Positions 1,783-32,344 of a stretch of 64,000 nucleotides of DNA are shown here, piece by piece (the first letter of the stretch is position 1; each line of letters opens with the position of its first letter). The notes beneath the pieces were generated by a model. That model was not told the origin of the DNA. It did no database searches and saw only the letters and a program-made list of their open reading frames with translations. Where the stretch lies: contig CBDASK010000003.1 in NCBI GenBank assembly GCA_965199495.1, forward strand, positions 1,248,001 to 1,312,000, written 5' to 3'. The translations under genes and the position numbers were made by a program. Origin of the DNA: Abditibacterium sp. (GTDB lineage Bacteria; Armatimonadota; Abditibacteriia; Abditibacteriales; Abditibacteriaceae).

Positions 1783-1785
1783 AAC

Positions 1786-1807: not shown

Positions 1808-1838
1808 TGCGCCGCGCGGGCGCCAACCGCGCCCACCC

Positions 1839-2129
1839 ATGCCAACAAATCAGAACCAGGACGTCGTTGCCCAGTTCGGTGCCGCCACAAGCGTGGCCAA
1901 CACTGTCGGCGCGCGCGTTCGTCAGGCGCGTGACCGCCTGAATTGGGAACAACAGGACCTCAGCGACCGCTCTAAAGTCCCTATACAAACCCTCAAAGAT
2001 ATAGAACGCGGCAAGACCAAAGCTCCGCGCGCCAAAACCCTAAACGCTTTGGCTGAGGCGCTTGGCGTCGAGGCCGGATTTCTGCGCACCGGAGAAGACC
2101 CGCCCAACTTTGTTGCGCCTCAAGTATGA
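1839..2129 (+). CDS. XRE/Cro-C1 family HTH transcriptional regulator
   Basis: VGARVRQARDRLNWEQQDLSDRSKVPIQTLKDIERGKTKAP..TLNALAEALGV is an HTH_3 pattern; ATG 1839 preferred over TTG 1794. Confidence 0.85.
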   Translation: MPTNQNQDVVAQFGAATSVANTVGARVRQARDRLNWEQQDLSDRSKVPIQTLKDIERGKTKAPRAKTLNALAEALGVEAGFLRTGEDPPNFVAPQV

Positions 2130-2154
2130 TTGAGGTATGATTTAAGTATGGTTT
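2122..2154 (+). promoter_or_regulatory. Three tandem 11-bp direct repeats between the XRE gene and dpdC (candidate operator)
   Basis: AAGTATGATTG / AGGTATGATTT / AAGTATGGTTT, followed by RBS AGGAG and TTG 2171. Confidence 0.55.
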
Positions 2155-2170
2155 CGAGCAGGAGATTATT

Positions 2171-3151
2171 TTGAAAATCGCGCTGGTGGTGCCCTGCACT
2201 AAATCCAAATCGCGGCTTCCAAGCGAAGTGATGCGATTCGGCGCGCTTGCCAAGGGCGAGTGCGCTCAGGTGGCGCTCAGGTGGCAGGCGGCGGCGCAAA
2301 GTCAATCGTTTTCTATAGACGCCGTGCGAGCAAGCGAGCTTTACAGCGGGAACAATTGGAATCTGGCCGCGCGTGCGCAAGCGGAGTTGGGCGATGAGTG
2401 CCAATTATGGATCGTGTCGGCAGGCTTTGGTTTGGTGAGCAGCGACGAGTGCTTGCCCGCTTACTCGGCGACTTTCGCCGCCGAAGAGAACCGCGTGTCC
2501 GATCAGATCAGTGGCGAGCGCTCGCCCGCAGCGGCCCACGCCGCTTGGTGGAAGAGCATTAACGCTGAGCGTCGCCGCACGGAAACGCCGCTGCTGACCA
2601 CGTTCGCCGAATTTGATCGTGTGATTTTAGCATTAAGTGCACCTTACCTGGCCGCCGTGCGCGAGGACGCGCTCGCCTTGGCGCGGGAGTTGGGGCCGCA
2701 GAAGTTATGGATGGTCGCGATGGAGACGCGCGCCCTGCCGCTTGATCTGCGCGAGTGCGCGGTCTTTGAAAATAGCGAGGTCGAGAATTTGATCGGTGGC
2801 ACGCGCGTTACGCTCAACCTTCGGGCTTTGGAGTGGTGGCTGCGAGAGGTCGTGCCAGTCACGGGGTGGGATAGGGCGGCGCAGCAGTTGGAGATTCGTC
2901 GTCGCATTTGCCAGGCGACACCGGCGCCCACGCGCCCCATCAATCCGATGAGCGATGCCGAAGTTACGACCTGGATCGAAGCCCGGCGCGCCGAAGCGGG
3001 CGGCCAGTGGCCAAGCGGCGGCAAGACTGGCTTACTGCGGACTTTGCGGGTGGGCGGGCGTTCGTGCGAGCAGAAGCGCTTCTCGCGTTTGTGCGAGCGC
3101 GTCTTAGCCAGAGGAGAGGCCGAGAAACTGGCGGCGGGAGGTGCGAGCTAA
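2171..3151 (+). CDS. dpdC: DpdC-like protein (YaaA/DUF328-like fold)
   Basis: VVPCTKSK, ASELYSG and LWIVSAGFGLV...PAYSATF resemble YaaA-like motifs; directly upstream of dpdA. Confidence 0.6.
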   Translation: MKIALVVPCTKSKSRLPSEVMRFGALAKGECAQVALRWQAAAQSQSFSIDAVRASELYSGNNWNLAARAQAELGDECQLWIVSAGFGLVSSDECLPAYSATFAAEENRVSDQISGERSPAAAHAAWWKSINAERRRTETPLLTTFAEFDRVILALSAPYLAAVREDALALARELGPQKLWMVAMETRALPLDLRECAVFENSEVENLIGGTRVTLNLRALEWWLREVVPVTGWDRAAQQLEIRRRICQATPAPTRPINPMSDAEVTTWIEARRAEAGGQWPSGGKTGLLRTLRVGGRSCEQKRFSRLCERVLARGEAEKLAAGGAS

Positions 3152-3152
3152 T

Positions 3153-4403
3153 ATGAAATTTCTTTTTGCCGACAGTCTCGACACCATCGATCCTGGCTAC
3201 GACTTCCAAAACGACGCGTTTACGCCCGACCGGCGCGCGCAGCACGACGACGTTTACCCGCACGAGTTTTTCCCCGCCGCGCCCTATGACGGTATGTTAG
3301 TCTCGCGTGCTGTCGTAGGTGATACCGGCCTCAAAGGCAAATACACCACGTCACAGAGCATCCGCTTTCGGCGCGATGGCGCGCGCGAGTTCCTGCGCTA
3401 CGAGGGGCCGATGGTGATGGGCGACTGCGGCGCGTTTTCCTACGTGCGCGAGGAAAAACCGCCCTACGGCATCGGCGAGATGCTCGACTACTACGCCGAC
3501 TGCGGCTTTACCCACGCCGTCTCGATTGACCATGTGATTTTGGGCTACGACGAATCGTTCGATAGCGCCACGCTTTTCGGCGGGCGCACGGGGCCGCTCG
3601 ACAATCCGCATTTGCCGCCCGAATGGAAGCGGCGCTACCTGCTCACCCTGGAGTTGGCCGAGCAGTTTCTGGCGCGCTGCCAGAGCGAACGCGCGCCTTT
3701 TGCGCCCATCGGCATCGCGCAGGGTTGGAGTCCGTTCTCCTACCGCGAAGCCGTTAAGCGCCTGGTCGAGATGGGCTACGACTATATCGCCCTGGGCGGC
3801 ATGGTGCCCCTGATGGCGCCACAGATCATGCGCGTTTTGGACGCAGTGCGCGAGGTCGCGCCCGATGTGAAACTGCACTTGTTTGGCTTTGCCAAAGTGG
3901 ATGATTTGCCCAAGTTCGTCGTTTATAATATCGAGTCGTTCGATTCGACTTCGCCGCTGCTGCGCGCGTTTAAGGACGGCCAAAAGAACTATCTGGGGCC
4001 GCAGCGCTGGTTCACGGCGCTGCGCGTGCCCGATGCCGACGAGAGCAACCTGTTCAAGCGTGACATCTTGGCGGGCGTGAAAGAGCAGAAGCATTTGCGC
4101 GAACTCGAAACCAAAACTCTGGCGGCGATTCGCGCTTTTGACGCCGACGAGATCGGTGTCGAAGAGGCGCTGCATCCGCTCGAACAATACGGTTTAGAAA
4201 TGGGCAAAAAGGTGCCGCTCTACGCTTACCGCGATACTCTGACGGCGCGCCCGTGGAAAACTTGCGAGTGCCGCGTCTGCCGCGAGGCGGGCGTCGAAGT
4301 CGTGGTGTTTCGCGGCTCCAATCGCAATCGCCGACGCGGATTTCACAATCTGTGGGAGTTCCACCGCCAACTCAACTCGCTACGCCCTTCCAACGCGCTT
4401 TAA
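3153..4403 (+). CDS. dpdA: DNA-guanine transglycosylase DpdA (TgtA5)
   Basis: MKFLFADSLD.IDP, YDGMLVSR, MGDCGAFSY, SIDH, IALGGMVP, LHLFG, SFDSTSP and C-terminal Zn site CECRVC...RRRGFHN; RBS GGAGG upstream. Confidence 0.9.
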   Translation: MKFLFADSLDTIDPGYDFQNDAFTPDRRAQHDDVYPHEFFPAAPYDGMLVSRAVVGDTGLKGKYTTSQSIRFRRDGAREFLRYEGPMVMGDCGAFSYVREEKPPYGIGEMLDYYADCGFTHAVSIDHVILGYDESFDSATLFGGRTGPLDNPHLPPEWKRRYLLTLELAEQFLARCQSERAPFAPIGIAQGWSPFSYREAVKRLVEMGYDYIALGGMVPLMAPQIMRVLDAVREVAPDVKLHLFGFAKVDDLPKFVVYNIESFDSTSPLLRAFKDGQKNYLGPQRWFTALRVPDADESNLFKRDILAGVKEQKHLRELETKTLAAIRAFDADEIGVEEALHPLEQYGLEMGKKVPLYAYRDTLTARPWKTCECRVCREAGVEVVVFRGSNRNRRRGFHNLWEFHRQLNSLRPSNAL

Positions 4404-4425
4404 CGCCCAGCGTTTTTAAATTTTC

Positions 4426-5592
4426 ATGTCTACTGCCAAATTGTCCACCGCTCCTGCTCCCATGCCCACTGACTCTGATTCTCGCTCCACAGTCGCCTTC
4501 GAGGCGCTTCGCCTGACGCAGCCTTCGGGCCGCCACGTCTATTCGTTTGCCGCCGGTGCGCTCGCGCTCCTCGATATCGCCGACATCCCGCGCATCAAGC
4601 GCGCCGACGATCTCTCGCTCGAAGGTTACCAGCGGCCCGAAGTGGTCGGCCATATCGCCGAGATTCGGCGTTACTTGGACAGCGATAACGCCATTTTGCC
4701 CAACACCATCGTGCTGGCCTTTACCCAGGAGATCGAGTTCACGCCCTATAATGCGAGCGAAAACGGCGGCGGCCCCAGCCGGAGCGGACGCTTGACGGTG
4801 GAAGTGCGCGAGGGCGAGAAACCAGCGTTTGTGGTGGATGGCCAGCAGAGGTTGGCGGCGGCTTCGAGTTGTAAACACGCGGAGTTCCCGCTCTTCGTGA
4901 GCGCGTTTGTGGCGCCAGATCCCGCCGAACAGCGCAAGCAGTTCGTCTTGGTGAATCGCACCAAACCATTACCACAGGGCCTGATATTCGAGCTTTTGGC
5001 CGAGATCGATGGTCATCTGCCAACGGCTCTCTCCAAGGCGCGTTTGGCCTCGCTATTGACCAATCGGCTCAACTTCTCGCCTGGCGCTTTGCGAGGCAAA
5101 ATCCGCACGCCGACCCAGCCTGGAGGCACGATCAAAGACAATTCGATGCGCCGCGCCATCGCCAACAGCTTAAACGATGGCGCGCTCTTTCAGGTCGCCA
5201 AAAGCGCGGGCCGCGACGGCTGGGAAAACGAGGACAAGATGCACGCCGCCATGCAAGAAGTGGTAGCGACCTTCTGGGAAGGCGTCTCCTTGGCGTTTCC
5301 GACCGCGTGGGAACTGCCGCCCAAAGCCTCGCGCCTGACGCATGGCGTGGGTATAGTGGCGCTTGGATTCGTAATGGATCACCTGCACGCGCGCCGTCTC
5401 AAAGGTGCCGATTGGAATGCCATAAGCATCGCCAACGAACTGCAAACTCTGGCGCCGCACTGCGCCTGGACGAGTGGCGCCTGGCACTTTAGCGATGAGG
5501 ACGTGCGCGGTTGGAACGTGCTCCAAAACACCGACCGCGACGTGCGACTGCTGACGGCTTACATGACGCGGTTAGTGGAAGAAAAACTATAG
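4426..5592 (+). CDS. dpdB: DGQHR-domain protein DpdB (DndB-like)
   Basis: GYQRPE...HIAEIRRYL, LPNTIVLAF, VVDGQQRLAA, FVLVNRTKPL, SRLTHGVGIVALG; follows dpdA. Confidence 0.85.
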   Translation: MSTAKLSTAPAPMPTDSDSRSTVAFEALRLTQPSGRHVYSFAAGALALLDIADIPRIKRADDLSLEGYQRPEVVGHIAEIRRYLDSDNAILPNTIVLAFTQEIEFTPYNASENGGGPSRSGRLTVEVREGEKPAFVVDGQQRLAAASSCKHAEFPLFVSAFVAPDPAEQRKQFVLVNRTKPLPQGLIFELLAEIDGHLPTALSKARLASLLTNRLNFSPGALRGKIRTPTQPGGTIKDNSMRRAIANSLNDGALFQVAKSAGRDGWENEDKMHAAMQEVVATFWEGVSLAFPTAWELPPKASRLTHGVGIVALGFVMDHLHARRLKGADWNAISIANELQTLAPHCAWTSGAWHFSDEDVRGWNVLQNTDRDVRLLTAYMTRLVEEKL

Positions 5593-5640
5593 GTCGGATA
5601 CTTGTGCGCTATTATTTTCGCGTATTTTACTTTTTGGTGC

Positions 5641-6150
5641 ATGAACACCAACACATCACCCCACGAACTCGACGCAACCACCGACACAACCACCGATAAC
5701 CCCAAAGGCGAATCCGCTAATATACGTCCCCGCGCGGAGTGGGACGAGGACGAGATTTTCGACGGGCGCCCCAAGAGCGTAACCATTCAGATTCTCGTCG
5801 TCTCGCCCGGCGCCGCGCCCTACCCGCACACGCTCGACAATTCTCTCGACGCCATGCAAGAGATTATCGGCGGCAACGTCACCTCGTTCGACGCTGGCGT
5901 AACAGATACCGTCGGCATCGCCCACGACGAGGGCCTGCTGCTGCGCTTGCCGCCCAACCGCCTGATTCCCGCCACGGGCGCTGTTATCTTCGGCACATTT
6001 TTCATCGCGGGCAGCGGCGTCAACCTGCACTCTTTGACACCGGAGCAGATGAGCGAAGCCGCCAAGCTCTTCGAGCATCCGCTGCGGCTCCAGCAACTCG
6101 CCCAACTCTTGCAACGCGAGCGCTCGGACTTCGACGGCACCGACGATTAA
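5641..6150 (+). CDS. DUF3846-like protein of mobile elements
   Basis: LDNSLDAMQEIIGG...HDEGLLLRLPPNR...IFGTFFIAG...SLTPEQ pattern. Confidence 0.6.
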   Translation: MNTNTSPHELDATTDTTTDNPKGESANIRPRAEWDEDEIFDGRPKSVTIQILVVSPGAAPYPHTLDNSLDAMQEIIGGNVTSFDAGVTDTVGIAHDEGLLLRLPPNRLIPATGAVIFGTFFIAGSGVNLHSLTPEQMSEAAKLFEHPLRLQQLAQLLQRERSDFDGTDD

Positions 6151-11485: not shown

Positions 11486-12220
11486 TCATCCTTCGACCAG
11501 CAATTCGCTGGCGTTTTTGAACGAGAAGCGCTCTTGTTGCGCGGCGGTTATGGCGCTGTCGCGCGCCATGCCCAGCGCGGCGACGGGACTAAAACGGCCC
11601 CAGCCCGAACTCCACGCCACGCGGCGCTCGCCCAGAGTTTGCATCGCGCTGGCGATCACGTCGCGTTCGGTAAAGGAGACAACCGGCACGAAAACCGTAT
11701 TGACGACTTCCTTAATCGCGACCGCCGCCATGCGCGTCAGTTCGACGGTTTGCGGGGCAATCGCGAATTTGAGCGCGCTAAATTCGCGCGCCGCCGCCAC
11801 TGCCGCTTCCAAGTTGGCGGGCGTCGTGGCTGTGAGCATCACCGGGCGCGAATAGCGGCGCAGCGCGTTCAAAACGTCGCGCCCGCCCTGACTGGTGATG
11901 AGGTCGGCGTCGGTTTTCTGCTCGATTAAAGTGCCACAAAAGCGTGGCTTGACCAGATACAAACGCGCCAACTCACCCGACAAATCGGGGCGATGAATCG
12001 AGGCAGTCATCCACGCGCGAAAGCGTTTGTCGCCGCGCGTGTGTTCGGCCAAATAGGAGTTGCCGCCGACCAGATCGAACGAGGCGAAAGGCGCTGAAAA
12101 ACAGAGCGCCTCGAATTGGCCCTGCTCGGCGTAGGCGCGGGCAGCAGCCACGTCGGGCGCGTCCAGAGCGCGGGTGTCGGGCGTTGTGCCCAGATAACAG
12201 TGAAGGTCAATGCGAGCCAT
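11486..12220 (-). CDS. Amidohydrolase-2-like TIM-barrel protein (degenerate)
   Basis: IDLHCYLG N-terminus, GERRVAWSS, FKNASELL; paralog-like to the adjacent gene. Confidence 0.6.
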   Translation of the reverse strand: MARIDLHCYLGTTPDTRALDAPDVAAARAYAEQGQFEALCFSAPFASFDLVGGNSYLAEHTRGDKRFRAWMTASIHRPDLSGELARLYLVKPRFCGTLIEQKTDADLITSQGGRDVLNALRRYSRPVMLTATTPANLEAAVAAAREFSALKFAIAPQTVELTRMAAVAIKEVVNTVFVPVVSFTERDVIASAMQTLGERRVAWSSGWGRFSPVAALGMARDSAITAAQQERFSFKNASELLVEG

Positions 12221-12248
12221 AATTCAGATGTCGGATTTCGGATACGGT

Positions 12249-12980
12249 TTATTCGCCGATTAATCTATTTAAGTTGCCGCCGACGATGGCGGCTTTTTGT
12301 TCGTTGCCGATGCCCGATCCGCGCACCACGTTGAGAGAGGCGGCGCTGTAACGGAGCGGCGAATACGAGGCGTAAATCAGGCGATTGGCGCCGTCGGGAA
12401 CGTGAGTGGCCACGGCTTCGAGCGCGCCGGGCGCGAGCAAATTGGTGGTTTCGAGGTGAAACTTGGGCGAAGAACGCAAAACCGCGATGGCCTCGCCTAT
12501 ATTGGAACTGTCAACGCCCGCCAACAAAAGCGGCGCCTGCGTGAAAGCCACGGCGTCGGCGAGTTCGGTCGCCTCGCCGGGATGGGTGCATTCGACGGCC
12601 ACGGGAATATGCAGTTCGTCGCACTTTTGCAGCAGTTCGCGAAATGGCGCGAAGTGAATCGGCCAGCCCTGACGCGTCGGGTAAAACCGGATCATCTTGA
12701 ATCCCCGATGGGCGCAATTCTCGGCCTCTTCGAGACAGTGCGGATAAGCGCGCGGGTCGAGCGTGGCGACCGGCATCAGTTGCGAATGTTCGGCGCACGC
12801 TTCGAGCGTGGCGGCGTTGCCCTCGCGATAATCGTAGGTGATGCCCGTCGTGCAAAGCGCGAGGGCGCGCTCGATTTTGTTGGCGGTCATCGCCTTGAGA
12901 ACTTCCTGAATTTGCAGGTCTTCGTGATGCGGCCACGGGCCAAAAAGCGCGCAGGCGTCGAAAAATTGGATGGCAGCCAT
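12249..12980 (-). CDS. Amidohydrolase-2-like protein
   Basis: PVATLDP, GFKMIRFYP, FHLETT, GANRLIYAS.SP, IVGGNLNRL; ATG 12980. Confidence 0.7.
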   Translation of the reverse strand: MAAIQFFDACALFGPWPHHEDLQIQEVLKAMTANKIERALALCTTGITYDYREGNAATLEACAEHSQLMPVATLDPRAYPHCLEEAENCAHRGFKMIRFYPTRQGWPIHFAPFRELLQKCDELHIPVAVECTHPGEATELADAVAFTQAPLLLAGVDSSNIGEAIAVLRSSPKFHLETTNLLAPGALEAVATHVPDGANRLIYASYSPLRYSAASLNVVRGSGIGNEQKAAIVGGNLNRLIGE

Positions 12981-13035
12981 TGGAGAAAGGTAACGCAATT
13001 TTAAGCGATTTTGCCTGCGAGCGCTACTTTTGGAC

Positions 13036-13118
13036 AAGGATACAGGCTGAAGGCCGAAGGATAAAACTACGCATCGCTCAATTTCACCTTTATCCTTGCG
13101 CCTTTATGTTTTATCCTT
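13036..13118. repeat. Heptamer-periodic inverted repeat (AGGATAM family)
   Basis: AGGATAC AGGCTGA AGGCCGA AGGATAA ... TTATCCTTGCGCCTTTATGTTTTATCCTT. Confidence 0.55.
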
Positions 13119-13123
13119 TTCCC

Positions 13124-14659
13124 ATGTCACTTGCCACGCGCCCTTATCTCATTGAGGAATATACCACGACCGTTTGCCCGCACTGTTTCGCCGACGGGCC
13201 GCTCCGCAGCGACGGCGATGTTTGGCGCGATGGAATGCTCGTCGCGCAGGACGGCCAAATCTGGATGCGCCGGTTTTGCGCGCAACACGGCGAAACCGCG
13301 TCGCTTTATGAAGAAGATGCCGAAATCTGGCGCGCGCGCCGTGGCTGGAGTGCAGCCACGTCCACCGTCACGCCCGACCGCGCCGACAATTTCCGGGGTT
13401 TTCCCGATGGCTATCGCGACGGTTTGCCCGCTTCGCACGGCCAGCACACCTGCATTTTGCTGCTCAATATCACGCAGCGTTGCAATTATTCGTGCCCGAC
13501 TTGCTACGCCGATGCGCTCAAGCCAGGCACGGCGAAAAACTCGCCCGAATTGCCGACATTGGACGAACTCGATCACACGATTGACACGATGCTGGAACGC
13601 GAAGGCGGCAGGTTGGGTGTGCTGATGCTTTCGGGCGGCGAGCCGACTTTGCGCGACGATTTGGAACAGATTATCGAACGCGCGCTCTCCAAAAATATTA
13701 CGCGTGTTTTGATTAACACCAACGGACGCCGCATCGCGCGCGACGCGAAATTTGTCACAATGCTCGAACGGTTTCGTGACCGCATCGAGATTTATTTGCA
13801 GTGGGACGGGCCAAACGGCGACGCCGCGCTGCACCATCGCGGCGAAGATGTGCGCGACGAAAAAACGCGCGCGTTGAAAGCGATTGGCGACGCGCGATTG
13901 TGGTCAACACTGGTGATGACCGTGGCGCGCGGCGTCAACGATGGCGATGTCGGCGCGGTGTTGCAGTTGGGTTTGAACACGCCGCGATGCAGCGGCATGG
14001 CGATTCAGCCGATGTTCGGTTCGGGCCGCAACGCCGGTTTCGATCCGAATAATCGCGTGACGCCGACCGGCATTACGCGCCGCATGGGCGAGCAAACCGG
14101 CGGTTTGGTAACGTGGGAAGATTTTCTGCCGTTGCCCTGTTCGCACCGCGATTGCTGCGATATTTCGTATTTGCTCCAGACGCGCGACGGAAGTTGGAAA
14201 AGTTTGCCCCGTTTAATCGGGCGCGATGAACTGCAAAAATGGCTGCATTTGGTTTCCAACACGATTTCGTTCGAGTCGGTTTCGAGCGGCGTGGCTGATA
14301 TGCTCAAAAGCGGCGCGATTGCGCGCGTGTTTTCCGAAAGCGGCAAAGTTTCGGGCCAGCAAATCGTCGCCGATATTTCCAATATGTGCGGCTGCGTCGC
14401 CGGTCTGCCCGAAATTCTGGGCGCGATCTGGAATCGCGAAAAAGCGTTGGATAAAATGGCCGAGAAAACCTTTCGCGTCACGGTCAAACAGTTCATGGAC
14501 GCGCACACTTTCCACGAAGCGCGATTGCGCCAATGCTGCGTTCACACCGGCACGTTTGAGGAAGACCCGAAACGTTATTCGTTTTGCTGGCGCTATCTGT
14601 TCGACGACGCCGACGATTTTCCGGCGCGCGAAAACGTGATTAGTCTGGAGGCGGTTTAA
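13124..14659 (+). CDS. Radical SAM protein, Tes/GDGT-MAS (MJ0619)-like family
   Basis: N-terminal CPHC...CAQHG metal site; RS motif CNYSCPTC; SGGEPT; NTNG; YLQWDG; RGVND; PLPCSHRDCC; C-terminal QCCVH...SFC. Confidence 0.8.
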   Translation: MSLATRPYLIEEYTTTVCPHCFADGPLRSDGDVWRDGMLVAQDGQIWMRRFCAQHGETASLYEEDAEIWRARRGWSAATSTVTPDRADNFRGFPDGYRDGLPASHGQHTCILLLNITQRCNYSCPTCYADALKPGTAKNSPELPTLDELDHTIDTMLEREGGRLGVLMLSGGEPTLRDDLEQIIERALSKNITRVLINTNGRRIARDAKFVTMLERFRDRIEIYLQWDGPNGDAALHHRGEDVRDEKTRALKAIGDARLWSTLVMTVARGVNDGDVGAVLQLGLNTPRCSGMAIQPMFGSGRNAGFDPNNRVTPTGITRRMGEQTGGLVTWEDFLPLPCSHRDCCDISYLLQTRDGSWKSLPRLIGRDELQKWLHLVSNTISFESVSSGVADMLKSGAIARVFSESGKVSGQQIVADISNMCGCVAGLPEILGAIWNREKALDKMAEKTFRVTVKQFMDAHTFHEARLRQCCVHTGTFEEDPKRYSFCWRYLFDDADDFPARENVISLEAV

Positions 14660-14674
14660 AAGTTTGCGGAAGGG

Positions 14675-14829
14675 TGGCCCCCTCCCCAACCCTCCCCCGT
14701 TCCGGGAGAGGGGGCACTCGCTTGAAATTTTGACTTGCAAGAACTAACTTGTACGCGAGTTAATGCGGCTTATAAATTTCAAGCGAGTGCCCCCTCTCAC
14801 GGAACGGGGGAGGGTTGGGGAGGGGGCCA
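14675..14829. repeat. Long palindromic element (~55-bp arms, CCCTCCCC family)
   Basis: TGGCCCCCTCCCCAACCCTCCCCCGTTCCG...GCACTCGCTTGAAATTT and its near-perfect inverse. Confidence 0.85.
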
Positions 14830-14862
14830 AAAGTTCTTCTGAACTCAAGCATCCAAAACACC

Positions 14863-15570
14863 ATGACTTTAGGCGAATTTTTCACTCTCCTCGGCTTTCT
14901 CACTGGCGCGCTCACGCTTTATTTGTGGTCGCGCGCGCAAAAACTCGACACGCAGGGCATGAAATATGTCGCGCTGGCGGGCATCTGCGGCGGCGTGGCT
15001 GGTGCCAAGATCACGCAATGGATCATCGGCGAAGGCGGCGGTTTGACGAAGGCGATTCTCGATCCGCATAACGGCGGTAAATCGCTCATCGGCGGTTTGG
15101 TTTGTGGTTGGCTCGCCGTCGAAATTGCCAAACGCGTGTTGGGCATCAAACGTTCGACGGGCGATGGTTGGGCGTTGGCGCTTCCGGCGGGCGAGGCGAT
15201 TGGGCGCATCGGTTGTTACTTCAACGGTTGCTGCTACGGCACCAAGTGCGACGCGAGTTGGGCGATTTATCAGCACGGCGCGTGGCGCCATCCGACGCAA
15301 CTTTATTCGAGCGCGGCGGCAGCTTTAATTTTCGCCGTAATCTGGTTTTCGCGCGGCCAACTCAAGCGCGAGGGCGACGGTTTCAAGTTGTATTTGCTGC
15401 TTTACGGCGCCTCGCGCTTTGTCATCGAGTTCGCGCGCGACCGCTCGGTGGTGTGGAACAATTTGTCGTTGGTTCAAATTATCTGTCTCGAAACCGCGAT
15501 TGTCGCGGCGGTGTTGCTGGCGTGGAACAGTTGGAAAGCGCGCCCAAAACAAACGGAGCGAATCGCATGA
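14863..15570 (+). CDS. Prolipoprotein diacylglyceryl transferase (Lgt)-family paralog
   Basis: GGKSLIGG, GEAIGRIGCYFNGCCYGT, HPTQLY, YGASRFVIEFAR; multiple TM helices. Confidence 0.8.
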   Translation: MTLGEFFTLLGFLTGALTLYLWSRAQKLDTQGMKYVALAGICGGVAGAKITQWIIGEGGGLTKAILDPHNGGKSLIGGLVCGWLAVEIAKRVLGIKRSTGDGWALALPAGEAIGRIGCYFNGCCYGTKCDASWAIYQHGAWRHPTQLYSSAAAALIFAVIWFSRGQLKREGDGFKLYLLLYGASRFVIEFARDRSVVWNNLSLVQIICLETAIVAAVLLAWNSWKARPKQTERIA

Positions 15571-15884
15571 ACGGCGCCGCACCGATTCAGTGCGTCAACT
15601 GCGGTTGTGAGCAACCGTTCGCGCGGATTTATTGCGCGCAGTGCGGCTGTTCGCTCGATGCCGCCAAACCTTTGGGCCAAACGTGGGTGGGCACGTTTTT
15701 GATCGTTATTTTGCTATTCGTCGCCGCAACGTTAATCGGGTTCACGCTTATTTGGTTGATGTTTTTGGGGATGGAAGGGATTTCGTTCGCTTCTTTGTCC
15801 CTCCAAACAAAAGCTGTGGGCATTGCAATGTTGGCAGCAGCCACCGGCTGCGTCTGGGGCATTTGGCGCATGGCGCGCTGGTGA
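15567..15884 (+). CDS. Zinc-ribbon membrane protein, paralog 1
   Basis: ATGA overlap with the lgt-like gene; CVNCG-x9-CAQCG, two TM helices, C-terminal GCVWGIWR. Confidence 0.75.
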   Translation: MNGAAPIQCVNCGCEQPFARIYCAQCGCSLDAAKPLGQTWVGTFLIVILLFVAATLIGFTLIWLMFLGMEGISFASLSLQTKAVGIAMLAAATGCVWGIWRMARW

Positions 15885-15930
15885 ACTTCGCGTGTCAATG
15901 AGTTAAATTTAGGATTAAAGTTGAGCCATT

Positions 15931-16254
15931 ATGAATTCACCTCATCCGCCAAGTGACGCGATTTGCCCCAACTGCGGTGCGCCGCGCGACGCCGGACGGG
16001 CCTACTGCGCTAACTGCGGCGCGCCCTTGTCGGGCACGGTATCGGGGACGTCGTCCACATCGAAAACGATTACGTCTATTTTGCTGGCTTGGGGCGCGTG
16101 CGCGTTCGGCAGTCTGGGCGCGTGTCTGGGACTTATCGGCGTGATGGGCGGCAATATTTCCACCGATTGGGGCTATATCGCGACGGGCCTCGCTGCTCTG
16201 GTCGCCGCCGTGGCTTGCGGGTGGGGCATCTTCCGCCTCAACAGCAAAAAATGA
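15931..16254 (+). CDS. Zinc-ribbon membrane protein, paralog 2
   Basis: CPNCG-x9-CANCG, TM1 LGAC, C-terminal ACGWGIFR. Confidence 0.8.
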   Translation: MNSPHPPSDAICPNCGAPRDAGRAYCANCGAPLSGTVSGTSSTSKTITSILLAWGACAFGSLGACLGLIGVMGGNISTDWGYIATGLAALVAAVACGWGIFRLNSKK

Positions 16255-16574
16255 GCGATAACTTTTCGGCGTCTTCACTGCCCTGTCCCAATTGCGGAGA
16301 ACTTCAAGCGTCCGACGCGGTTTTTTGTGCGCACTGTGGCGCGCGCCTGAAAACTATCGAACCACAACAGGATTTAAATTTTTCGCGTTTGCCTTTGCTG
16401 TTGTTGCTGACACTGCCCATCGCCAGCCTATTTCTGGCTTTGGGAAGTTGCGCCGCCATCGGTGTCGTCGCGGCGGGGATTGTGCGGCTCGATGGAAAAT
16501 TAGCGGCCATCGGCGCGGGCGCGTTATTGGTTATAATCGTTTTAGCAAAATTGCCGCGTTTTTTCAATCGCTAA
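16251..16574 (+). CDS. Zinc-ribbon membrane protein, paralog 3
   Basis: ATGA overlap; CPNCG-x9-CAHCG, TM1 LGSC. Confidence 0.75.
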   Translation: MSDNFSASSLPCPNCGELQASDAVFCAHCGARLKTIEPQQDLNFSRLPLLLLLTLPIASLFLALGSCAAIGVVAAGIVRLDGKLAAIGAGALLVIIVLAKLPRFFNR

Positions 16575-16577
16575 ATC

Positions 16578-16907
16578 ATGAACGAAACTCCACCCTTGCC
16601 GCAACCCAGCGGCGCGACTTGTGCGAACTGCGGCGCGGCACAAAACGCGAACGCGCCCTACTGCACCAACTGCGGCGCGCCGCTAAGAGCAGCCACACCG
16701 GGCACGCTTTCTTCAGCCAGCAAAATGATCATCTCAATTGCGCTGGGATTTGGCGCGCTAATGTTTGGCGCGGTCGGCGCGTGTTTCGTTTTTCTGGGCA
16801 ACATCGAAGGCGGCACAATGGACTGGACATTTCTACTTTTTGTCGGCGTCCCCGCGTTGCTGGCGCTGGCTTGCATCTGGGGCATTTTTCGGGTTCAACG
16901 CAAATGA
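16578..16907 (+). CDS. Zinc-ribbon membrane protein, paralog 4
   Basis: CANCG-x9-CTNCG, TM1 VGAC, C-terminal ACIWGIFR. Confidence 0.8.
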   Translation: MNETPPLPQPSGATCANCGAAQNANAPYCTNCGAPLRAATPGTLSSASKMIISIALGFGALMFGAVGACFVFLGNIEGGTMDWTFLLFVGVPALLALACIWGIFRVQRK

Positions 16908-17173
16908 CTGATTCTACTCCTACTAAACCCACTTTATCACGCGGCGAAGCGTTCGAGAAATTGGCGTTTACATTGTGCAAAATCGCCACGTTCGCGCTGT
17001 TTACCGGACGCTTTGCCTTGCCGGTGGCTGCTGTCGGGGCGGCGCTATTTTTTGGGTTGGCGCACTTCAACGGCAAGCGCGATACGCGTTGTTTGTTCAA
17101 ACACCCCCTACTTATCGCGGCGTTCTGGCTGGCGGTTGCGCTCGGCTGGGTTTGGCTCAATTACATTCGTTGA
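16904..17173 (+). CDS. Small (89 aa) Cys-containing membrane protein
   Basis: ATGA overlap; MTDSTP...TLCKIATF...DTRCLFKHPLLI; hydrophobic segments. Confidence 0.7.
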   Translation: MTDSTPTKPTLSRGEAFEKLAFTLCKIATFALFTGRFALPVAAVGAALFFGLAHFNGKRDTRCLFKHPLLIAAFWLAVALGWVWLNYIR

Positions 17174-17190
17174 TGTTATAATTTTTCGTT

Positions 17191-18015
17191 ATGCGACGAA
17201 CGGTTTCCAGCCTTCACCCGGCTCTTTATACCCTGCGCGTCTGGCAGAAACAACAGGCGCGCCATCTGCGCGATTGGCCGGGCCGCCACGGTTTCGCGCG
17301 CGAACGGCAAAGCGAAACTTTGCCGCACACCGTCAAACGCCACCAATCGCTGCTCAATCGCAAAATGGGCGATTCCGATCCGCAATTGCAACTCAACAAA
17401 ATCGTCAATTTGAGCTTGGCGCGCGAATGCGTTGATGGAATTCTCATCAAACCGGGCGAAACGTTTTCGTTCTGGCGACTGGTCGGCGACGCCAACGAAG
17501 CCAAAGGTTATCTGCCCGGTATGCGACTTTCGCGCGGCGAAGTCAAAGTCGGCGTTGGCGGTGGCTTGTGCCAGTTCGGCAATTTATTATTGTGGATGGC
17601 GTGGCATTCTCCGCTCGTTGTCAGCGAGCGCCATCATCATTCGTTCGACCCGTTTCCCGATCAGGGTCGCGTTTTGCCGTTTGGTAGCGGGTGCAGTTTG
17701 TTTTTCCCGTATCTCGATTTGAGATTACACAACCCGACCGACGCGACGTTTCAGTTTCGCATCTGGCTCGATGACACGCACTTGCGCGGCTTGCTCAGTT
17801 CAAGCGAATTGTGGCCGCATACTTTTCATGTTTACGAGCGCGAACACGCGTTTGTGCGCCGCGATGACAAAAACTATCGCAGCAACGAAATTTGGCGTCG
17901 CCTCACCGACCGCGTGACGGGCAATACTGTGGGAGAAGAATTGCTGGTCGTAAACTTCGCCGAAGTGAAGTATCAGATTTCGGATAGCGAATCTCAGATG
18001 TCGGATATCGGATAG
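17191..18015 (+). CDS. VanW-like protein
   Basis: IKPGETFSFW, GVGGGLCQ, ERHHHS, YLDLRLHNPT. Confidence 0.85.
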   Translation: MRRTVSSLHPALYTLRVWQKQQARHLRDWPGRHGFARERQSETLPHTVKRHQSLLNRKMGDSDPQLQLNKIVNLSLARECVDGILIKPGETFSFWRLVGDANEAKGYLPGMRLSRGEVKVGVGGGLCQFGNLLLWMAWHSPLVVSERHHHSFDPFPDQGRVLPFGSGCSLFFPYLDLRLHNPTDATFQFRIWLDDTHLRGLLSSSELWPHTFHVYEREHAFVRRDDKNYRSNEIWRRLTDRVTGNTVGEELLVVNFAEVKYQISDSESQMSDIG

Positions 18016-18090
18016 ATTTAAAGAAAATCAAATCTGTTCGCCTTCCTCACACTTATCCGGGTATCCGCGCTCCGAAATCCGAAATCCGAA
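17971..18090. repeat. Heptamer-periodic inverted repeat (TCRGATW family) overlapping the VanW 3' end
   Basis: TCAGATTTCGGATA...TCAGATGTCGGATATCGGATA / TATCCGGGTATCCG...TCCGAAATCCGAAATCCGAAA. Confidence 0.7.
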
Positions 18091-18092
18091 AC

Positions 18093-19292
18093 ATGCTCAT
18101 CAAAACCCAAAAACAGCTCGATGAATTAGTCGCCAGCCTCACAGCAGCCACGGCGGCGGGGGCGCCCCTCGCCTTCGATACCGAGTTTTTGTCCGAGAAG
18201 CGTTATTACGCCAAATTGTGTTTGGTTCAGGTCTTGGCGCCGCTCGAAAACGGCGGCGTTGTCGAAGGCGCCGTTGATCCGTTTGGCCTCGATTTAACCG
18301 CGTTGGCCGCGATGATTGCCGACCCGAATATCGTGAAAATTGTGCATTCGGGTTCGGCGGATTTGCTGATTTTGTGGCAATTGTTCCAAACGCAGGCGCG
18401 CAACGTTTTCGATACGCAAATCGCGGCGGCGTTTTTGGGTTACGGCCACCAAATCGGTTACGCCGATATGGTGCGGCGCTTCACCGGCGCGCAGATTTCC
18501 AAGACGATGCAATATACCGATTGGAGCGTGCGGCCACTGTCGGACGAGCAGATCGAATATGCGATGGACGATGTGCGTTATCTGCCGCCGATTTATCGCG
18601 ATTTGACTGAGCAATTGCAAGCGCGCGGGCGTTTGGAATGGGCGCAATTCGAGTTCGAGCGCGCTGAAAACAAAGCGACGCGGCCCGACGATGACGAAAA
18701 CGCCTATTTGCGTTTGAACTTGTCGAAACTCAAGCGCAAACAGATCGCGGTTACGCGCGAGTTGGCGAAGGTGCGGCAACAATTGGCGCGCCGTGACAAC
18801 AAGCCGCCGAGTTTCATCGTGCCCGATTTGGCGCTGTTACAGATGGCGCGCCAACAACCTGATTCCGTCGCCGATTTGCGCGCGATTCGCGGGATGCCCG
18901 GCGTGCCCGAAAAAATCGCCAACACTTTATTGGATGCCATTGACGACGCGCTCGAAACCGACCCGGCGACGTGGCCGCCTGCCCGCGAAGACACGCGGCC
19001 CGATCCGCGCTTGGAATCGATTACCTCGCTGATGGGCGTAGTAGCCACGGCGCGCGCCACGAGCGAAGAAGTCTCGCGTTCGTATCTGGCGCCGCGCGAA
19101 GCCGTCAACGATTTGGCGCAATGGTGGCTCGACCGCGCGGCGGGACAAAAAGTCAGCGACGTTTCCGAGCTGGAAATCATGCAAAGTTGGCGCGGCGAAA
19201 TTTTGGGCGCCGATTTACTCAAGTTGCTCGACGGCGAAGCCGTCATCGCGCTCGATGCCGCGACCGGTTTGCCGCAATTGCGCGACGCGTAA
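18093..19292 (+). CDS. rnd: Ribonuclease D
   Basis: AFDTEF...YYAKLCLVQ, FDTQIAA, TDWSVRPLS.EQIEYA.DDV, HRDC domain. Confidence 0.9.
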   Translation: MLIKTQKQLDELVASLTAATAAGAPLAFDTEFLSEKRYYAKLCLVQVLAPLENGGVVEGAVDPFGLDLTALAAMIADPNIVKIVHSGSADLLILWQLFQTQARNVFDTQIAAAFLGYGHQIGYADMVRRFTGAQISKTMQYTDWSVRPLSDEQIEYAMDDVRYLPPIYRDLTEQLQARGRLEWAQFEFERAENKATRPDDDENAYLRLNLSKLKRKQIAVTRELAKVRQQLARRDNKPPSFIVPDLALLQMARQQPDSVADLRAIRGMPGVPEKIANTLLDAIDDALETDPATWPPAREDTRPDPRLESITSLMGVVATARATSEEVSRSYLAPREAVNDLAQWWLDRAAGQKVSDVSELEIMQSWRGEILGADLLKLLDGEAVIALDAATGLPQLRDA

Positions 19293-19304
19293 ACTCCCAT
19301 TCTC

Positions 19305-20099
19305 ATGAAAATTGTCACCTGGAATATTCGCTATCGCAACAACGAAGACGCCGCAAAAGGGTTGGGCTGGGACGAAGTTCGGCGGGCGCGCGTCGTCGCG
19401 ATGCTCGAAGATTTGGCGCCCGACGTGTTAGCGGTTCAGGAGGTTTTGGCGCCGCAGATGAAAGATTTGCGAGCCGCGTTGCCCACCTATCAGGCCGTTG
19501 GCGTTGGGCGCGACGATGGCGTCGAAAGCGGCGAGTTCTCCGCGATTTTCTTTCGGCGCGCGCGCTTTGGCCTGCGCAGTTTTCGCACGCGCTGGCTCTC
19601 GGAAACGCCCGACGTGCCCTCGCGCGGCTGGGATGCCGCGTTGCCGCGCATCGCCACTTGCGTTCGGCTCTACGACGGCCAATTCAAACGCGAATTCGAG
19701 TTGTGGAACACTCATTTCGATCATCGCGGACAGGTCGCTCGCACGCAAAGCGCGCGCTATTTGCGCCGCGAAATCGCGCAACTAATGGTGCCGACACTGT
19801 TGTGCGGCGACTTCAATTCGGCGCCCGACGGAACGCCAGTTCAGGAAATACTATCCACGAAAAACGGCGCCGTTTTGCGCGATGCGCGCGCGCTTTCCCT
19901 CGCGCCACCGACCGGTTCGCTCGCCACGTTTTGCGGTTTCGAGGCCCCCTTGACCGACGTTAAAAATCGCATAGATTACGTTTTCGCCACGACCGGCTGG
20001 CGCATCGAAAGTTACGACGTGCCCGCGTGGAAAGGCGGCGACGACGCGCCCGCATCCGATCATCGGCCCGTCGTTGTCGAGGCGAAATTAGCGCCTTAG
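19305..20099 (+). CDS. Endonuclease/exonuclease/phosphatase (EEP) family protein, copy 1
   Basis: TWNIRY, VQE, GVGRDDG, NTHFDH, GDFN, RIDYVF, SDHRPV. Confidence 0.9.
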   Translation: MKIVTWNIRYRNNEDAAKGLGWDEVRRARVVAMLEDLAPDVLAVQEVLAPQMKDLRAALPTYQAVGVGRDDGVESGEFSAIFFRRARFGLRSFRTRWLSETPDVPSRGWDAALPRIATCVRLYDGQFKREFELWNTHFDHRGQVARTQSARYLRREIAQLMVPTLLCGDFNSAPDGTPVQEILSTKNGAVLRDARALSLAPPTGSLATFCGFEAPLTDVKNRIDYVFATTGWRIESYDVPAWKGGDDAPASDHRPVVVEAKLAP

Positions 20100-23934: not shown

Positions 23935-24801
23935 TTATTCGGCGCGCGCCAAAAACGCGCGTTTGGCGCGTTCGTTCTGGCGTTGCGCGGCCTGAAACGC
24001 GGCGGCGCAGTCGAAGAGTGGCCCGACTTCATCGAAGAAGCGAAACTGAAAATAAGGCGCGCTCGCCTTGAATGGCACCGATTGAATATGTTTGTCGTAG
24101 AGCGCCTTTTTGCTTTCATCGGGGCCGACGATGAACAGTTGTGTTTTCAGAAAAGACGGCAGTTGGCAAAGCCGATTGATGCCATTCAAAACGTCGGTCG
24201 TATGCTCGACTTCAAAGGCGCAACGAGGAATCAAATCGTCGTCGTTGGTGGTCTCGAACCACAAAACATCGATCAGCGCGGCCTCCTTTTTTTGTTTGGG
24301 TTTGAGCCAAGTCACCGGTTCTAAACCGTCACGTAGCGTCACCAAATCGGAGAGCGGCTTGCCGTTAAAAAAACCCTTGGTCTGGTCGGCGGGTGGCGCG
24401 TAAGTATGAAAACCGTAAACCTGACCGATGTAAAGCAGTTGACCCTGAATCGTATCGGTGATTTCTTTAGTGGTCGGAACTTTGGGTTGAGTGGCTTCGG
24501 GTTGCACCAAATCGAGCGCGATTGGCGTCGCAATTGGCGCGCTCACAACTGGCAAAATGGTGGGCGCCAGCAAGCGATAGTTGCCACTGCCCGTATCAAT
24601 CGGCTCGAAAATTTTGTAGATCCGCACGACCTGACGCACTTTGGCATCGACGTTATTGTTGCCTTTGGCTTTGGGATGCTGAAGTGCAAGCGCGATAATT
24701 TGCTTTAGATGCGCCTCGCCGCCCAATTGTTGCAGCGCGTCGGCAATCACGTCTTTCCATGTCATTTCGGGCGTCATTAACCGATAGTTTAATGCGCTCA
24801 C
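23935..24801 (-). CDS. Winged-HTH plus PD-(D/E)xK-like nuclease domain protein
   Basis: TWKDVIADALQQLGGEAHL N-terminal HTH; IDVLW...AFEVEHTT...G+.RL nuclease-like motif; overlaps the upstream gene stop. Confidence 0.65.
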   Translation of the reverse strand: MSALNYRLMTPEMTWKDVIADALQQLGGEAHLKQIIALALQHPKAKGNNNVDAKVRQVVRIYKIFEPIDTGSGNYRLLAPTILPVVSAPIATPIALDLVQPEATQPKVPTTKEITDTIQGQLLYIGQVYGFHTYAPPADQTKGFFNGKPLSDLVTLRDGLEPVTWLKPKQKKEAALIDVLWFETTNDDDLIPRCAFEVEHTTDVLNGINRLCQLPSFLKTQLFIVGPDESKKALYDKHIQSVPFKASAPYFQFRFFDEVGPLFDCAAAFQAAQRQNERAKRAFLARAE

Positions 24802-26063
24802 TCCAAACGCAAAACTCGGTTACCAGCGCGCAATTCGCCCAGCGTCGTTTCGAGCCAGCGCAACCACGAAATCACCGAAATCGCGCGCCGAGGAACAGTG
24901 TCGCCTGTTAGTGAAGTGTGTTTGTCAATCGAAGCAGCCACGGCGGCTTTGTTAATTGTGCCATCGCCCTTTAGCGCGCTTTCGAGGGCGCAGCGAATCA
25001 CCGGTTGGCGCAGCAGATTGGCGATCATTTTCTCTTGCCGCTCGCCCGCCGAAAGTTCGATATACGCGCGGCCTTCGTCGGTCAAATTGTAGCCCTGAAT
25101 CAAACCCATTTGCTCGGCGGCGCGGCGATAATAACTGCTCTGGCGCTCCGAGAAATCGAAGGCGCCCGCGATTTTTCCGCTATCGTCACAGCCCGCCGAG
25201 ACTTGCAACGGGAAGTCAATGACTTTGGCGAAATCATCGGCTTGCGGCACTTCCCACGGCTGCGTTGTGGCCACGACGGGCGTAATTTTGAGCCATTCGC
25301 CCAATGTGCGCGGTTTGTTTTCAGGAAAATGGACGCGGAAATGTTGGCTACTGCAAACCTCAATCGAGCGATATTGCTGCGGGTCGGCAAAGCGATATTC
25401 GTGAAACGAATTGACGCCGCTCGTGCCGTTGTAATTGAAGAAAAACAGTCGCACGCGTTTGCCGAAACGCTCCAGATAAACCCGATAAGGAAAGTAAATC
25501 TGGCGAATTAAAAAGTCTTGCGGCGTCGTATTTTTCGCCTCGAACAAAATGATTTCGTCGCGCGTTTCGTAGCCTTGGTCAACTTCGTATTGAATGCCTC
25601 GCGCCGAAAATTCGCCCAAATCGCCGACGCGATAATCGAAATGCGGCGCGAAACGGCGCCCGCGAATCGTCGCAAAAATCTCGTCTGTCCCGATAATTTG
25701 CTCGATGAGTTTGCACTGAAACAACCGATCTAACTGGCTCATTTCGCTGGTCGCATCGCGCAGCGAAACCAAGGGAAACGGAAATTTCGCATCGAAATCT
25801 TCAACATCGGCGCTCTTAATCGGTGGCAAATCGCAGTAACCGTCTTCGCGCAATAAAAGATATGAACCGTTGGTTTCGGGCAGCAAAAACAAGCCGTTTT
25901 CGCGCAACGCTTCGGGCCGCGCGCCGCGCGCGTCGAACTTGGTCATCAGCCGTGGCTCCTGTCCGAGCGCCTTGAAATCCGCCGAACACAAGCGATTGAC
26001 CGGGCGCGATAAATCAATCAAATTGGACGCGACAATCTGTTTCCAAGCTTGATCGCGCGTCAT
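24798..26063 (-). CDS. Putative restriction endonuclease
   Basis: EPRLMTKFD, QYEVDQGYE..IILFEAK, FLIRQIYFPYR, VPQADD, RQSSYY; RBS GAGGTG then ATG 26063; downstream of a DNA methyltransferase. Confidence 0.65.
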   Translation of the reverse strand: MTRDQAWKQIVASNLIDLSRPVNRLCSADFKALGQEPRLMTKFDARGARPEALRENGLFLLPETNGSYLLLREDGYCDLPPIKSADVEDFDAKFPFPLVSLRDATSEMSQLDRLFQCKLIEQIIGTDEIFATIRGRRFAPHFDYRVGDLGEFSARGIQYEVDQGYETRDEIILFEAKNTTPQDFLIRQIYFPYRVYLERFGKRVRLFFFNYNGTSGVNSFHEYRFADPQQYRSIEVCSSQHFRVHFPENKPRTLGEWLKITPVVATTQPWEVPQADDFAKVIDFPLQVSAGCDDSGKIAGAFDFSERQSSYYRRAAEQMGLIQGYNLTDEGRAYIELSAGERQEKMIANLLRQPVIRCALESALKGDGTINKAAVAASIDKHTSLTGDTVPRRAISVISWLRWLETTLGELRAGNRVLRLE

Positions 26064-27057
26064 AAATAGCACCTCGAATTAACAAGTAATACGACGGAAA
26101 GATAAACGATAATAAGTAAGATAACCATTTACCCCCCCCCCCCCCCCCCGTCACATTATTATTACATAAAGCGCGAGTTTTCAAGGTTTCGTCTTCCATG
26201 CGTTTTTGTCCTAATTCGAGATATTCGCTTTCCAATTCAAAGCCGACGAAGCGGCGGCCCAGACGAGCAGCCACGGCGCCGGTGGTAGCGCTGCCGCAAA
26301 ACGGATCGAGAATTAAATCGCCGGGTTGGCTCGATGAGCGAATGATGCGGTCGAGCAAGATTTCAGGTTTTTGCGTGGGATGTTTGCCGAAGCGTTTTTC
26401 CCATTTCGCGGGCGCCGGAAGTTTCCAGACCGATTGCATTTGTTTGTCGCCGTTGTCGCGTTTCATGGCGGCGTAGTCGAAATAATGTTTGGCTTTGGGA
26501 GTTTTGCGCGCCCACAACAAAGTTTCGTGCGCGTGCGTGAAATAGCGACACGCCAGATGCGGCGGCGGATTGGTTTTGTGCCACGCGATGTCGTTGAGAA
26601 TTTTGAAGCCCAAAGTTTGCAGCGCGAAGCCGACGCTGAAAATGTTGTGATTGGTGCCCGAAACCCAGATCGCGCCGTTGGGCTTGAGCAGACGGTGACA
26701 CTCGCGCAGCCAGTTCATATTAAAAGCGTGAATCTGCTCGAAAGTCGCGGTTTTGTCCCACTCGCCTTTGTCCACCGAAACCATGCGCCCGTTTTGGCAG
26801 GTGATGCCGCCGCTCGACAGAAAATAGGGCGGATCGGCGAAAATCAAATCGAAGGTTTCGGCTTTAGCGCGGTGCAAAAGTTCGAGTGCGTCTCCCTGAT
26901 ACAAACGCAAGCCACGGCGCGCGTCGAGCCAATGCGGTTCGGGATTGTTTTGTGCGACGGCGGCTTTGATTTCGGGCGCGAGATTGGAATATGGCTCGAA
27001 TAGCGTGACGGAAAGTCCGAGATCGGGATGAATTTGGGTTTGGGGCGAATTGGGCAA
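26014..27057 (-). CDS. N6/N4 DNA methyltransferase, beta class (DpnA-like)
   Basis: FADPPYFLS, MVSVDKGEWD, WVSGT.HNI, HPTQKP, LDPFCGSATT; C-terminal tail contains the G18 tract. Confidence 0.9.
   Translation of the reverse strand: MPNSPQTQIHPDLGLSVTLFEPYSNLAPEIKAAVAQNNPEPHWLDARRGLRLYQGDALELLHRAKAETFDLIFADPPYFLSSGGITCQNGRMVSVDKGEWDKTATFEQIHAFNMNWLRECHRLLKPNGAIWVSGTNHNIFSVGFALQTLGFKILNDIAWHKTNPPPHLACRYFTHAHETLLWARKTPKAKHYFDYAAMKRDNGDKQMQSVWKLPAPAKWEKRFGKHPTQKPEILLDRIIRSSSQPGDLILDPFCGSATTGAVAARLGRRFVGFELESEYLELGQKRMEDETLKTRALCNNNVTGGGGGGKWLSYLLSFIFPSYYLLIRGAIYDARSSLETDCRVQFD
26132..26149. repeat. C18 (G18 on coding strand) homopolymer
   Basis: 18 consecutive C in AT-rich context within the methyltransferase 3' end. 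Confidence 0.9.
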
Positions 27058-32335: not shown

Positions 32336-32344
32336 GTTTGTAAG

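Follow-up and report, generated by a model that had tools for sequence, protein, structure and literature searches.

Tes (also GDGT-MAS, after glycerol dialkyl glycerol tetraether, GDGT) is an archaeal radical S-adenosylmethionine (SAM) enzyme that joins the tails of two lipid chains, and Lgt moves a diacylglyceryl group from phosphatidylglycerol onto a cysteine. In bacteria, the available text on Mss, the membrane-spanning lipid synthase of anaerobes, describes coupling of bacterial acyl tails by a radical SAM enzyme with only a remote relation to Tes (PMC13159169). Bacterial Tes homologs have been proposed as synthases of branched GDGTs (brGDGTs), an activity given as unproven in the accessible parts of the sources (PMC8941075; bioRxiv 10.1101/2024.06.25.600576). 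The accessible parts of five sources treat these homologs as untested and make no mention of a link to Lgt (PMC8941075, PMC13159169, PMC13459092, PMC13274423, bioRxiv 10.1101/2024.06.25.600576). Here, we analyzed a stretch of 64,000 nucleotides from Abditibacterium sp. (assembly GCA_965199495.1, contig CBDASK010000003.1, positions 1,248,001 to 1,312,000 of the forward strand; hereafter the window, to which all plain coordinates refer). It carries a cassette of a radical SAM gene, an Lgt paralog, small cysteine-containing membrane proteins (miniproteins) and an 89-residue membrane protein. A description of such a cassette was not found in the literature, subscription papers and supplements being outside the scope of the search. 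We read the cassette, at about even confidence, as a private pathway of cysteine lipidation: the radical SAM enzyme would link phosphatidylglycerol tails, and the Lgt paralog would transfer the product to the miniproteins. That the Lgt paralog lipidates the miniproteins, in whatever form, is probable.

Linkage of the cassette across genomes

Eight open reading frames (ORFs) on the + strand, which the initial annotation had placed at 13124-18015, were recovered at these coordinates, together with the ATGA overlaps at 15567, 16251 and 16904. A neighbourhood survey bore out the proposed co-conservation for the radical SAM gene, the Lgt paralog, the small cysteine membrane proteins and the 89-residue protein. 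Seven genes, at 13124-17173, are a conserved module; the eighth, vanW, is excluded from it. The radical SAM and lgt genes overlap or lie at most 9 nt apart in 11 of 19 related loci. Apart from an ICMT/PEMT-type gene described below, no lipid enzyme was conserved near the cassette in this survey.

The surroundings of the radical SAM gene were mapped in loci of the phylum and then in Planctomycetota genomes, plasmid records and metagenomes. This gave 153 family members, a set skewed to the kin of the window because the metagenome scan retained the best 80 of 593 matches. Within the phylum, the radical SAM gene was matched in 46 of 201 genomes. At least two Lgt matches were present in 44 of these 46 genomes, compared with 14 of the 155 radical SAM-negative ones. 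An Lgt gene on the strand of the radical SAM gene was found in 119 of the 140 loci of a 140-leaf group, and in none of the 13 loci outside this group. Named carriers of the Lgt-linked cassette include Mycobacterium branderi, Nonomuraea and Chondrinema.

A chance neighbourhood of unrelated genes holds for vanW and for an inverted-repeat element within the locus, and some genomes have the module in separate pieces. For the seven-gene core this explanation is refuted by the cross-phylum linkage, and we give it almost no weight. Where at least 3.5 kb of sequence was available on both flanks, 78 of 81 loci of the 140-leaf group, from several phyla, had the same-strand Lgt. Furthermore, a single-chain Lgt-radical SAM fusion exists (P0121, 682 aa), and the components of the module are jointly absent in three genomes (G019, G107 and G188).

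Viral contigs gave no match to a relative of the Lgt paralog when the window's Lgt was used as query. In four loci (L122, L123, L125 and L127) an ArsP_1-type permease adjoins the radical SAM gene. Another fusion of 682 aa, P0126, has LGT, PF14378 and PEMT domains and again ties Lgt to lipid-type enzymes.

The radical SAM enzyme and the Lgt paralog

The radical SAM protein (13124-14659, + strand, 511 aa) is of the Tes/TrsS family and carries the Pfam domains Radical_SAM and Zn_ribbon_HMPTM. Its predicted structure had a predicted local distance difference test (pLDDT) score of 87. It matched GDGT-MAS (7TOM) with a template-modelling (TM) score of 0.72, Z of 45.3 and a root-mean-square deviation of 3.4 over 444 aligned residues, far above other radical SAM enzymes. 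Residues were mapped onto Tes through the 7TOL alignment. A rubredoxin site of the Tes pattern CxxC...CxxH is present as C18/C21/C52/H55, and the CX3CX2C motif as C120/C124/C127. C344, C471 and C488 are kept in all 56 members of the window's clade and align with cysteines invariant in 15 of 15 outside rows. From these alignments they are probably the ligands of a C-terminal [4Fe-4S] cluster. Met439 and Tyr459 are strictly conserved in 1,000 archaeal Tes homologs, whereas the window's enzyme has Lys455 (56/56 in its clade) and Thr475 at these positions. The Tes variants M439A and Y459F/L were still active, according to the available text of PMC9433317.

In both trees (FastTree and IQ-TREE) the enzyme was placed apart from Tes. 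In the IQ-TREE analysis a branch with support of 100 separates it from two Planctomycetota proteins that exceed the Tes cut-off; the trees contained no archaeal sequence, and locus L104 gave no row. All Lgt-linked radical SAM proteins were monophyletic in the FastTree analysis (support 0.985) and unresolved in a quick IQ-TREE run with 54 of the 153 rows, in which the window's own clade had support of 99. We set aside a correlation of radical SAM and Lgt distances (r 0.77) as evidence because kin share both. Searching the ESM Atlas with the homolog P0040, from the cultured non-pathogenic carrier Fimbriimonas ginsengisoli, returned unnamed radical SAM clusters only. Met439 and Tyr459 are kept in the two Planctomycetota proteins with scores above the Tes cut-off (L085 and L086, in G258 and G283). 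A sister group of four (L087-L090) also keeps both residues and lacks the N-terminal cluster motif.

The Lgt paralog (14863-15570, + strand, 235 aa, Pfam LGT) scored 122.4 bits against PF01790 (cut-off 24.9), and 79 of the 118.9 bits set for the equivalog model TIGR00544. Its structural model (pLDDT 91) matched E. coli Lgt alone (5AZB, TM score 0.73). R115 (equivalent to R143), Y181, R185 (equivalent to R239), E189 and R192 are kept, so that the lipid-activating network R143/R239/E243/R246/Y235 is intact. Among 112 cassette Lgt proteins, G142, R143 and G154 were invariant and R239 was present in 110, the other two being gaps.

The retained C-terminal cluster cysteines are also in line with a bulk synthase, that is, a radical SAM enzyme making free tail-linked lipids like brGDGTs or diabolic acids, with the Lgt paralog and the miniproteins as lipid-handling accessories. 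Such a role is proposed for bacterial Tes homologs in the accessible text of PMC8941075. This would leave the retained Lgt arginines unexplained, as well as the conserved Gly-x-Cys motif of the miniproteins. Moreover, the available part of PMC13159169 states that screened diabolic-acid producers had no detected Tes homologs, and that 3 of 14 acidobacteria producing iso-diabolic acid had them. We therefore regard a bulk synthase as very unlikely.

Miniproteins and their two-cysteine partner

Four zinc-ribbon proteins with two transmembrane (TM) helices follow on the + strand: s1 (15567-15884), s2 (15931-16254), s3 (16251-16574) and s4 (16578-16907). As had been proposed, they are paralogs (27-48% identity). 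Pfam zinc ribbons were matched in s2, s3 and s4; s1 has CxxC pairs and no Pfam match. The expectation of a specific acceptor-like cysteine was supported as well. Predicted acceptors are Cys65 of s2 (in Leu-Gly-Ala-Cys), Cys67 of s3 (in Leu-Gly-Ser-Cys) and Cys69 of s4 (in Val-Gly-Ala-Cys); s1 lacks the helix-1 Gly-x-Cys.

In a hand-picked alignment of 32 miniproteins the mean column identity was 20%, and the Gly and Cys where helix 1 ends were more than 90% conserved. Among unselected zinc-ribbon/TM proteins of the window's clade, 67 of 71 had a TM Cys and 42 of 71 had Gly-x-Cys. Gly-x-Cys was found in none of 8 unrelated zinc-ribbon/TM ORFs of the genome. Other Lgt-linked clades had a TM Cys with Gly at -2 or -3 in 59 of 115 small TM ORFs, compared with 35 of 817 in the genome background; many of these clades are without zinc ribbons. 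Within a set of 141 miniproteins, pre-filtered for a nearby Gly, the Cys lay at a median of 20 residues past the last Lys or Arg and was followed by hydrophobic residues. Hydropathy past the Cys had a median of +1.96, against -1.08 for 57 canonical-looking lipoproteins of the genome, although the filter that chose these 57 partly enforces the difference. The proteins s2-s4 do not resemble canonical lipoproteins, which have an N-terminal signal peptide, a strict lipobox and polar residues behind the Cys; the cysteines of s2-s4, at 65-69, lie behind a zinc ribbon. We predict from these sequence features that Gly-x-Cys at the putative outer helix end is a non-canonical lipobox.

Copy number was variable, with 0-8 miniproteins per locus. 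A close relative (L001, 96% identical) lacks s2 and s3, and s1 is only 67% identical to its ortholog there, compared with 89-96% for the neighbouring genes. Together, variability and copy turnover suggest selection for diversity. The miniprotein family (E 1e-10 or better) was found in 28 genomes, of which 26 bear the radical SAM gene. In the other two, the G197 locus ends at a contig end and the G174 match is without the motif. Dispersed copies exist, one of them elsewhere in this genome: an orphan zinc-ribbon/2-TM paralog with Ile-Gly-Ala-Cys (G000:C3:3330947-3331327, - strand) lies far from the cassette. Dispersed clusters were likewise seen in G084 and G072.

The 89-residue membrane protein (16904-17173, + strand) belongs to no known family and is present in single copy, with Cys25 and Cys63 invariant. 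Pfam gave no match above cut-off, the Rce1-like score being 20.3 of 22.4 bits, and the ESM Atlas has no entry for the protein. Of the 46 radical SAM-positive genomes, 35 carry this protein, 10 carry DUF4395 and none carries both, so that exactly one is present in 45. Neither was found in G074, which has the weakest radical SAM match and a single Lgt. Among the 155 radical SAM-negative genomes, DUF4395 was absent and the 89-residue protein occurred once. Users of DUF4395 are found in at least three places of the tree. In the initial annotation, the small membrane proteins that may be lipidated would include this one. Its single copy, the two invariant cysteines and the exchange with DUF4395 make it look more like a thiol-relay subunit than a substrate. 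We predict that it acts as a thiol or electron relay, and from their distribution alone the two proteins appear to be interchangeable two-cysteine relays.

Homology of the protein to DUF4395 (PF14340) was not supported, with no Pfam match and a profile comparison probability of 3%, nor was homology to Rce1, for which the match was below cut-off. The idea that it replaces the lost N-terminal cluster of the radical SAM enzyme was dropped, since a single clade speaks for it and DUF4395 also accompanies cluster-bearing enzymes. Cassettes with DUF4395 usually also carry an ICMT/PEMT-type methyltransferase; an ICMT of that type was not found in this genome. The pair was seen, for example, in the Lgt-linked cassettes L029, L055, L056, L063, L067, L073, L119 and L121, and in L122 (6361-7431) the two are fused.

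The proposed pathway, its surroundings and known systems

The cysteine-lipidation pathway can be laid out as follows. The radical SAM gene, the Lgt paralog, the variable cysteine miniproteins and the two-cysteine membrane protein travel together. From charge and hydropathy, the miniprotein Cys would sit at the outer-leaflet end of a helix running from inside to outside, a geometry suited to the periplasm-facing site of Lgt. Housekeeping Lgt would serve ordinary lipoboxes and the paralog Gly-x-Cys, to which it is predicted to move a diacylglyceryl-type group. Because the helix runs on past the Cys, cleavage of the products by LspA is improbable in the window's clade. In the weakest step, the cytoplasmic radical SAM enzyme would abstract hydrogen from an acyl tail of phosphatidylglycerol and, as in Tes, its C-terminal cluster would store the radical. 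The product of this step may be a tail-linked donor, macrocyclic or dimeric, which would account for a dedicated transferase. Thiol redox or electrons would be relayed by the 89-residue protein or, in its place, by DUF4395.

Several observations weigh against this reading, and the first of them concern the radical SAM enzyme. It scored 180.4 bits against the Tes model NF045702 (curated cut-off 450) and 217.5 bits, its best NCBIfam score, against the TrsS model NF045646 (cut-off 490). Identity to over-cut-off Tes proteins was about 24% (23-25%). The N-terminal [4Fe-4S] motif (C73, C77, C80 and His) was found in none of 55 members of the window's clade, compared with 82 of 82 other Lgt-linked radical SAM proteins. 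C110, C339 and C472 are shared with TrsS-like proteins, and with methyltransferase-linked relatives of the tree, and are absent from two Tes references. The initial annotation's term Tes-like therefore stands for the fold and the C-terminal cluster cysteines and fails for membership. Being below the cut-off and outside the Tes clade, the enzyme is, judged by its sequence, not a member of Tes. It may work like Tes.

A higher score for TrsS than for Tes would also suit a pathway of the kind that makes ribosomally synthesized and post-translationally modified peptides (RiPPs). Here the paralog would add plain diacylglyceryl, and the radical SAM enzyme would cross-link or otherwise modify the miniproteins or perform TrsS-like chemistry not directed at lipids. 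The small genes are multi-copy, hypervariable and partly dispersed, with one fixed motif, and resemble precursor families; the versions with DUF4395 come with a methyltransferase of ICMT/PEMT type. On the other hand, the fold matches lipid-binding Tes over nearly the whole chain, with Z of 45 compared with at most 19 for peptide maturases, and several other clades have miniproteins without a zinc ribbon. Thus we consider a RiPP-like pathway quite unlikely.

Within the transferase, the point that speaks against lipidation is His103. It is essential in E. coli Lgt, according to the available text of two reports (PMC4728403, PMC8689077), so that its loss weighs on the activity of the paralog. It was absent from all 112 cassette Lgt proteins, replaced mostly by Leu, Val or Ile. 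The window's Lgt has Ile at this position and Lys73 three residues upstream, and 104 of the 112 have Lys or Arg at the latter place. Cys occupies positions 146 and 151 in place of the N146/E151 signature. The lspA-adjacent Lgt of the genome likewise has Cys at both positions and keeps His103; therefore His103 alone sets the paralog apart. The argument against activity is softened by G174, in which the sole Lgt match carries Phe at the His103 position. A third Lgt of the window's genome (G000:C3:506526-507548, - strand) has the canonical N146/E151 signature and also Phe at His103. Further points lie in the miniproteins, where the Cys is missing in s1 and some other copies and a strict lipobox was found in 1 of the 141. 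As for linkage, the module is split in several genomes. In G125, one of the three well-flanked loci without a same-strand Lgt, the radical SAM and lgt genes are on different contigs, the miniproteins and the 89-residue gene being with lgt. The counts themselves overstate the case because kin are not independent.

The loss of His103 would fit a variant of the pathway in which the radical SAM enzyme halts at a carbon-sulfur stage, thiolating a lipid tail or stapling it to the miniprotein cysteine. The Lgt paralog would then mainly present the lipid, and the 89-residue protein or DUF4395 would carry sulfur or thiols. The accessible text of PMC9433317 describes a thiolated lipid intermediate for Tes and non-traditional cluster ligands in enzymes catalyzing S-C bond formation. 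The constant Lys455 in place of Met439, the three extra family-invariant cysteines and the two-cysteine membrane protein of 45 of 46 genomes point the same way. However, an iron-sulfur enzyme in the cytoplasm would be remote from the acceptor Cys, which is predicted to lie on the outer face, and the lipid-activating arginine network of Lgt is intact. We judge this variant to be unlikely.

If the cysteine-lipidation pathway is correct, the cassette could represent a widespread bacterial post-translational modification not described before. A macrocyclic or membrane-spanning lipid would be attached to hypervariable miniproteins, with redox from an exchangeable two-cysteine protein and methylation in some lineages. 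We put forward this broader statement tentatively and would not bet on it. Searching Planctomycetota with the Tes model gave 2 of 101 genomes over cut-off, and 11 of 20 retrieved loci were Lgt-linked. Many bacterial Tes hits may thus be protein-lipidation enzymes, and hits of this kind may mislead source assignments of paleoclimate lipids. The modification would amount to a lipid-RiPP pathway, and many bacterial Tes homologs that are at present listed as candidate brGDGT producers would in reality serve in it. Lgt chemistry would be extended beyond secreted lipoproteins, and DUF4395 would gain a suggested role. Candidate substrates and acceptor residues are given by the module itself, which makes the question testable.

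Downstream of the module lies the VanW-like gene (17191-18015, + strand, Pfam VanW; 193.8 bits against NF033128, cut-off 365). It had been counted among the members of the system, from which we remove it: vanW adjoins the cassette only in the three closest genomes (G000, G134 and G125), and close homologs were found in 7 of 201 genomes. It is thus a recent neighbour. The 203-nt gap between the radical SAM and lgt genes holds a dispersed inverted-repeat element (14675-14829, no strand assigned) with 56-nt arms of 98% identity, which is outside the system. Counting both strands and both arms, the genome has 47 matches to the 56-nt repeat. In the close relative L001, an inverted repeat of different sequence (5635-5899) occupies the same position. 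We infer that the element is REP/MITE-like (repetitive extragenic palindrome or miniature inverted-repeat transposable element). Rfam gave 0 matches at 12000-19500, and promoter and terminator scans of the locus were at chance level.

Elsewhere in the window, the region upstream of the radical SAM gene has two divergent amidohydrolase-like genes (11486-13037, - strand) that are kept only in close relatives. At 10-5589 (+ strand), two unannotated ORFs precede a weakly TGT-like and a DndB-like gene, together possibly a DNA-modification locus. An N6/N4 DNA methylase, a DUF6996/6997/7226 protein and an unannotated ORF at 23938-27057 (- strand) have lower GC content and are restriction-modification-like. 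A fatty-acid synthesis cluster with FabF-, FabG-, FabD- and FabH-like genes and a methyltransferase (31091-36619, - strand) lies 13 kb from the cassette.

In summary, the window's radical SAM enzyme shares with Tes/GDGT-MAS (MJ0619; 7TOL, 7TOM; NF045702) the whole-chain fold, the rubredoxin site, the radical SAM motif and the C-terminal-cluster cysteines. It differs in the missing N-terminal cluster cysteines, in Lys for Met439 and Thr for Tyr459, and in its separate branch. It is also tied to an Lgt paralog, whereas the two examined loci over the Tes cut-off are not. In contrast to the (seleno)protein TrsS, its ORF has no selenocysteine codon, and the methyltransferase-linked relatives have no Lgt neighbour. 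Mss is likewise a radical SAM enzyme and is set apart from the window's protein by its description. Eukaryotic CAAX processing, with prenylation, Rce1 and ICMT, also lipidates the cysteine of a dedicated motif. The DUF4395 cassettes contain a gene of ICMT/PEMT type, but the transferase here is of the Lgt type. With E. coli Lgt (5AZB/5AZC) the paralog has the fold and G142, R143, G154, Y235, R239, E243 and R246 in common. It differs as an extra copy beside the housekeeping enzyme, and in its predicted substrates, which have Gly at -2 and an internal Cys (median residue 69) followed by a hydrophobic stretch.

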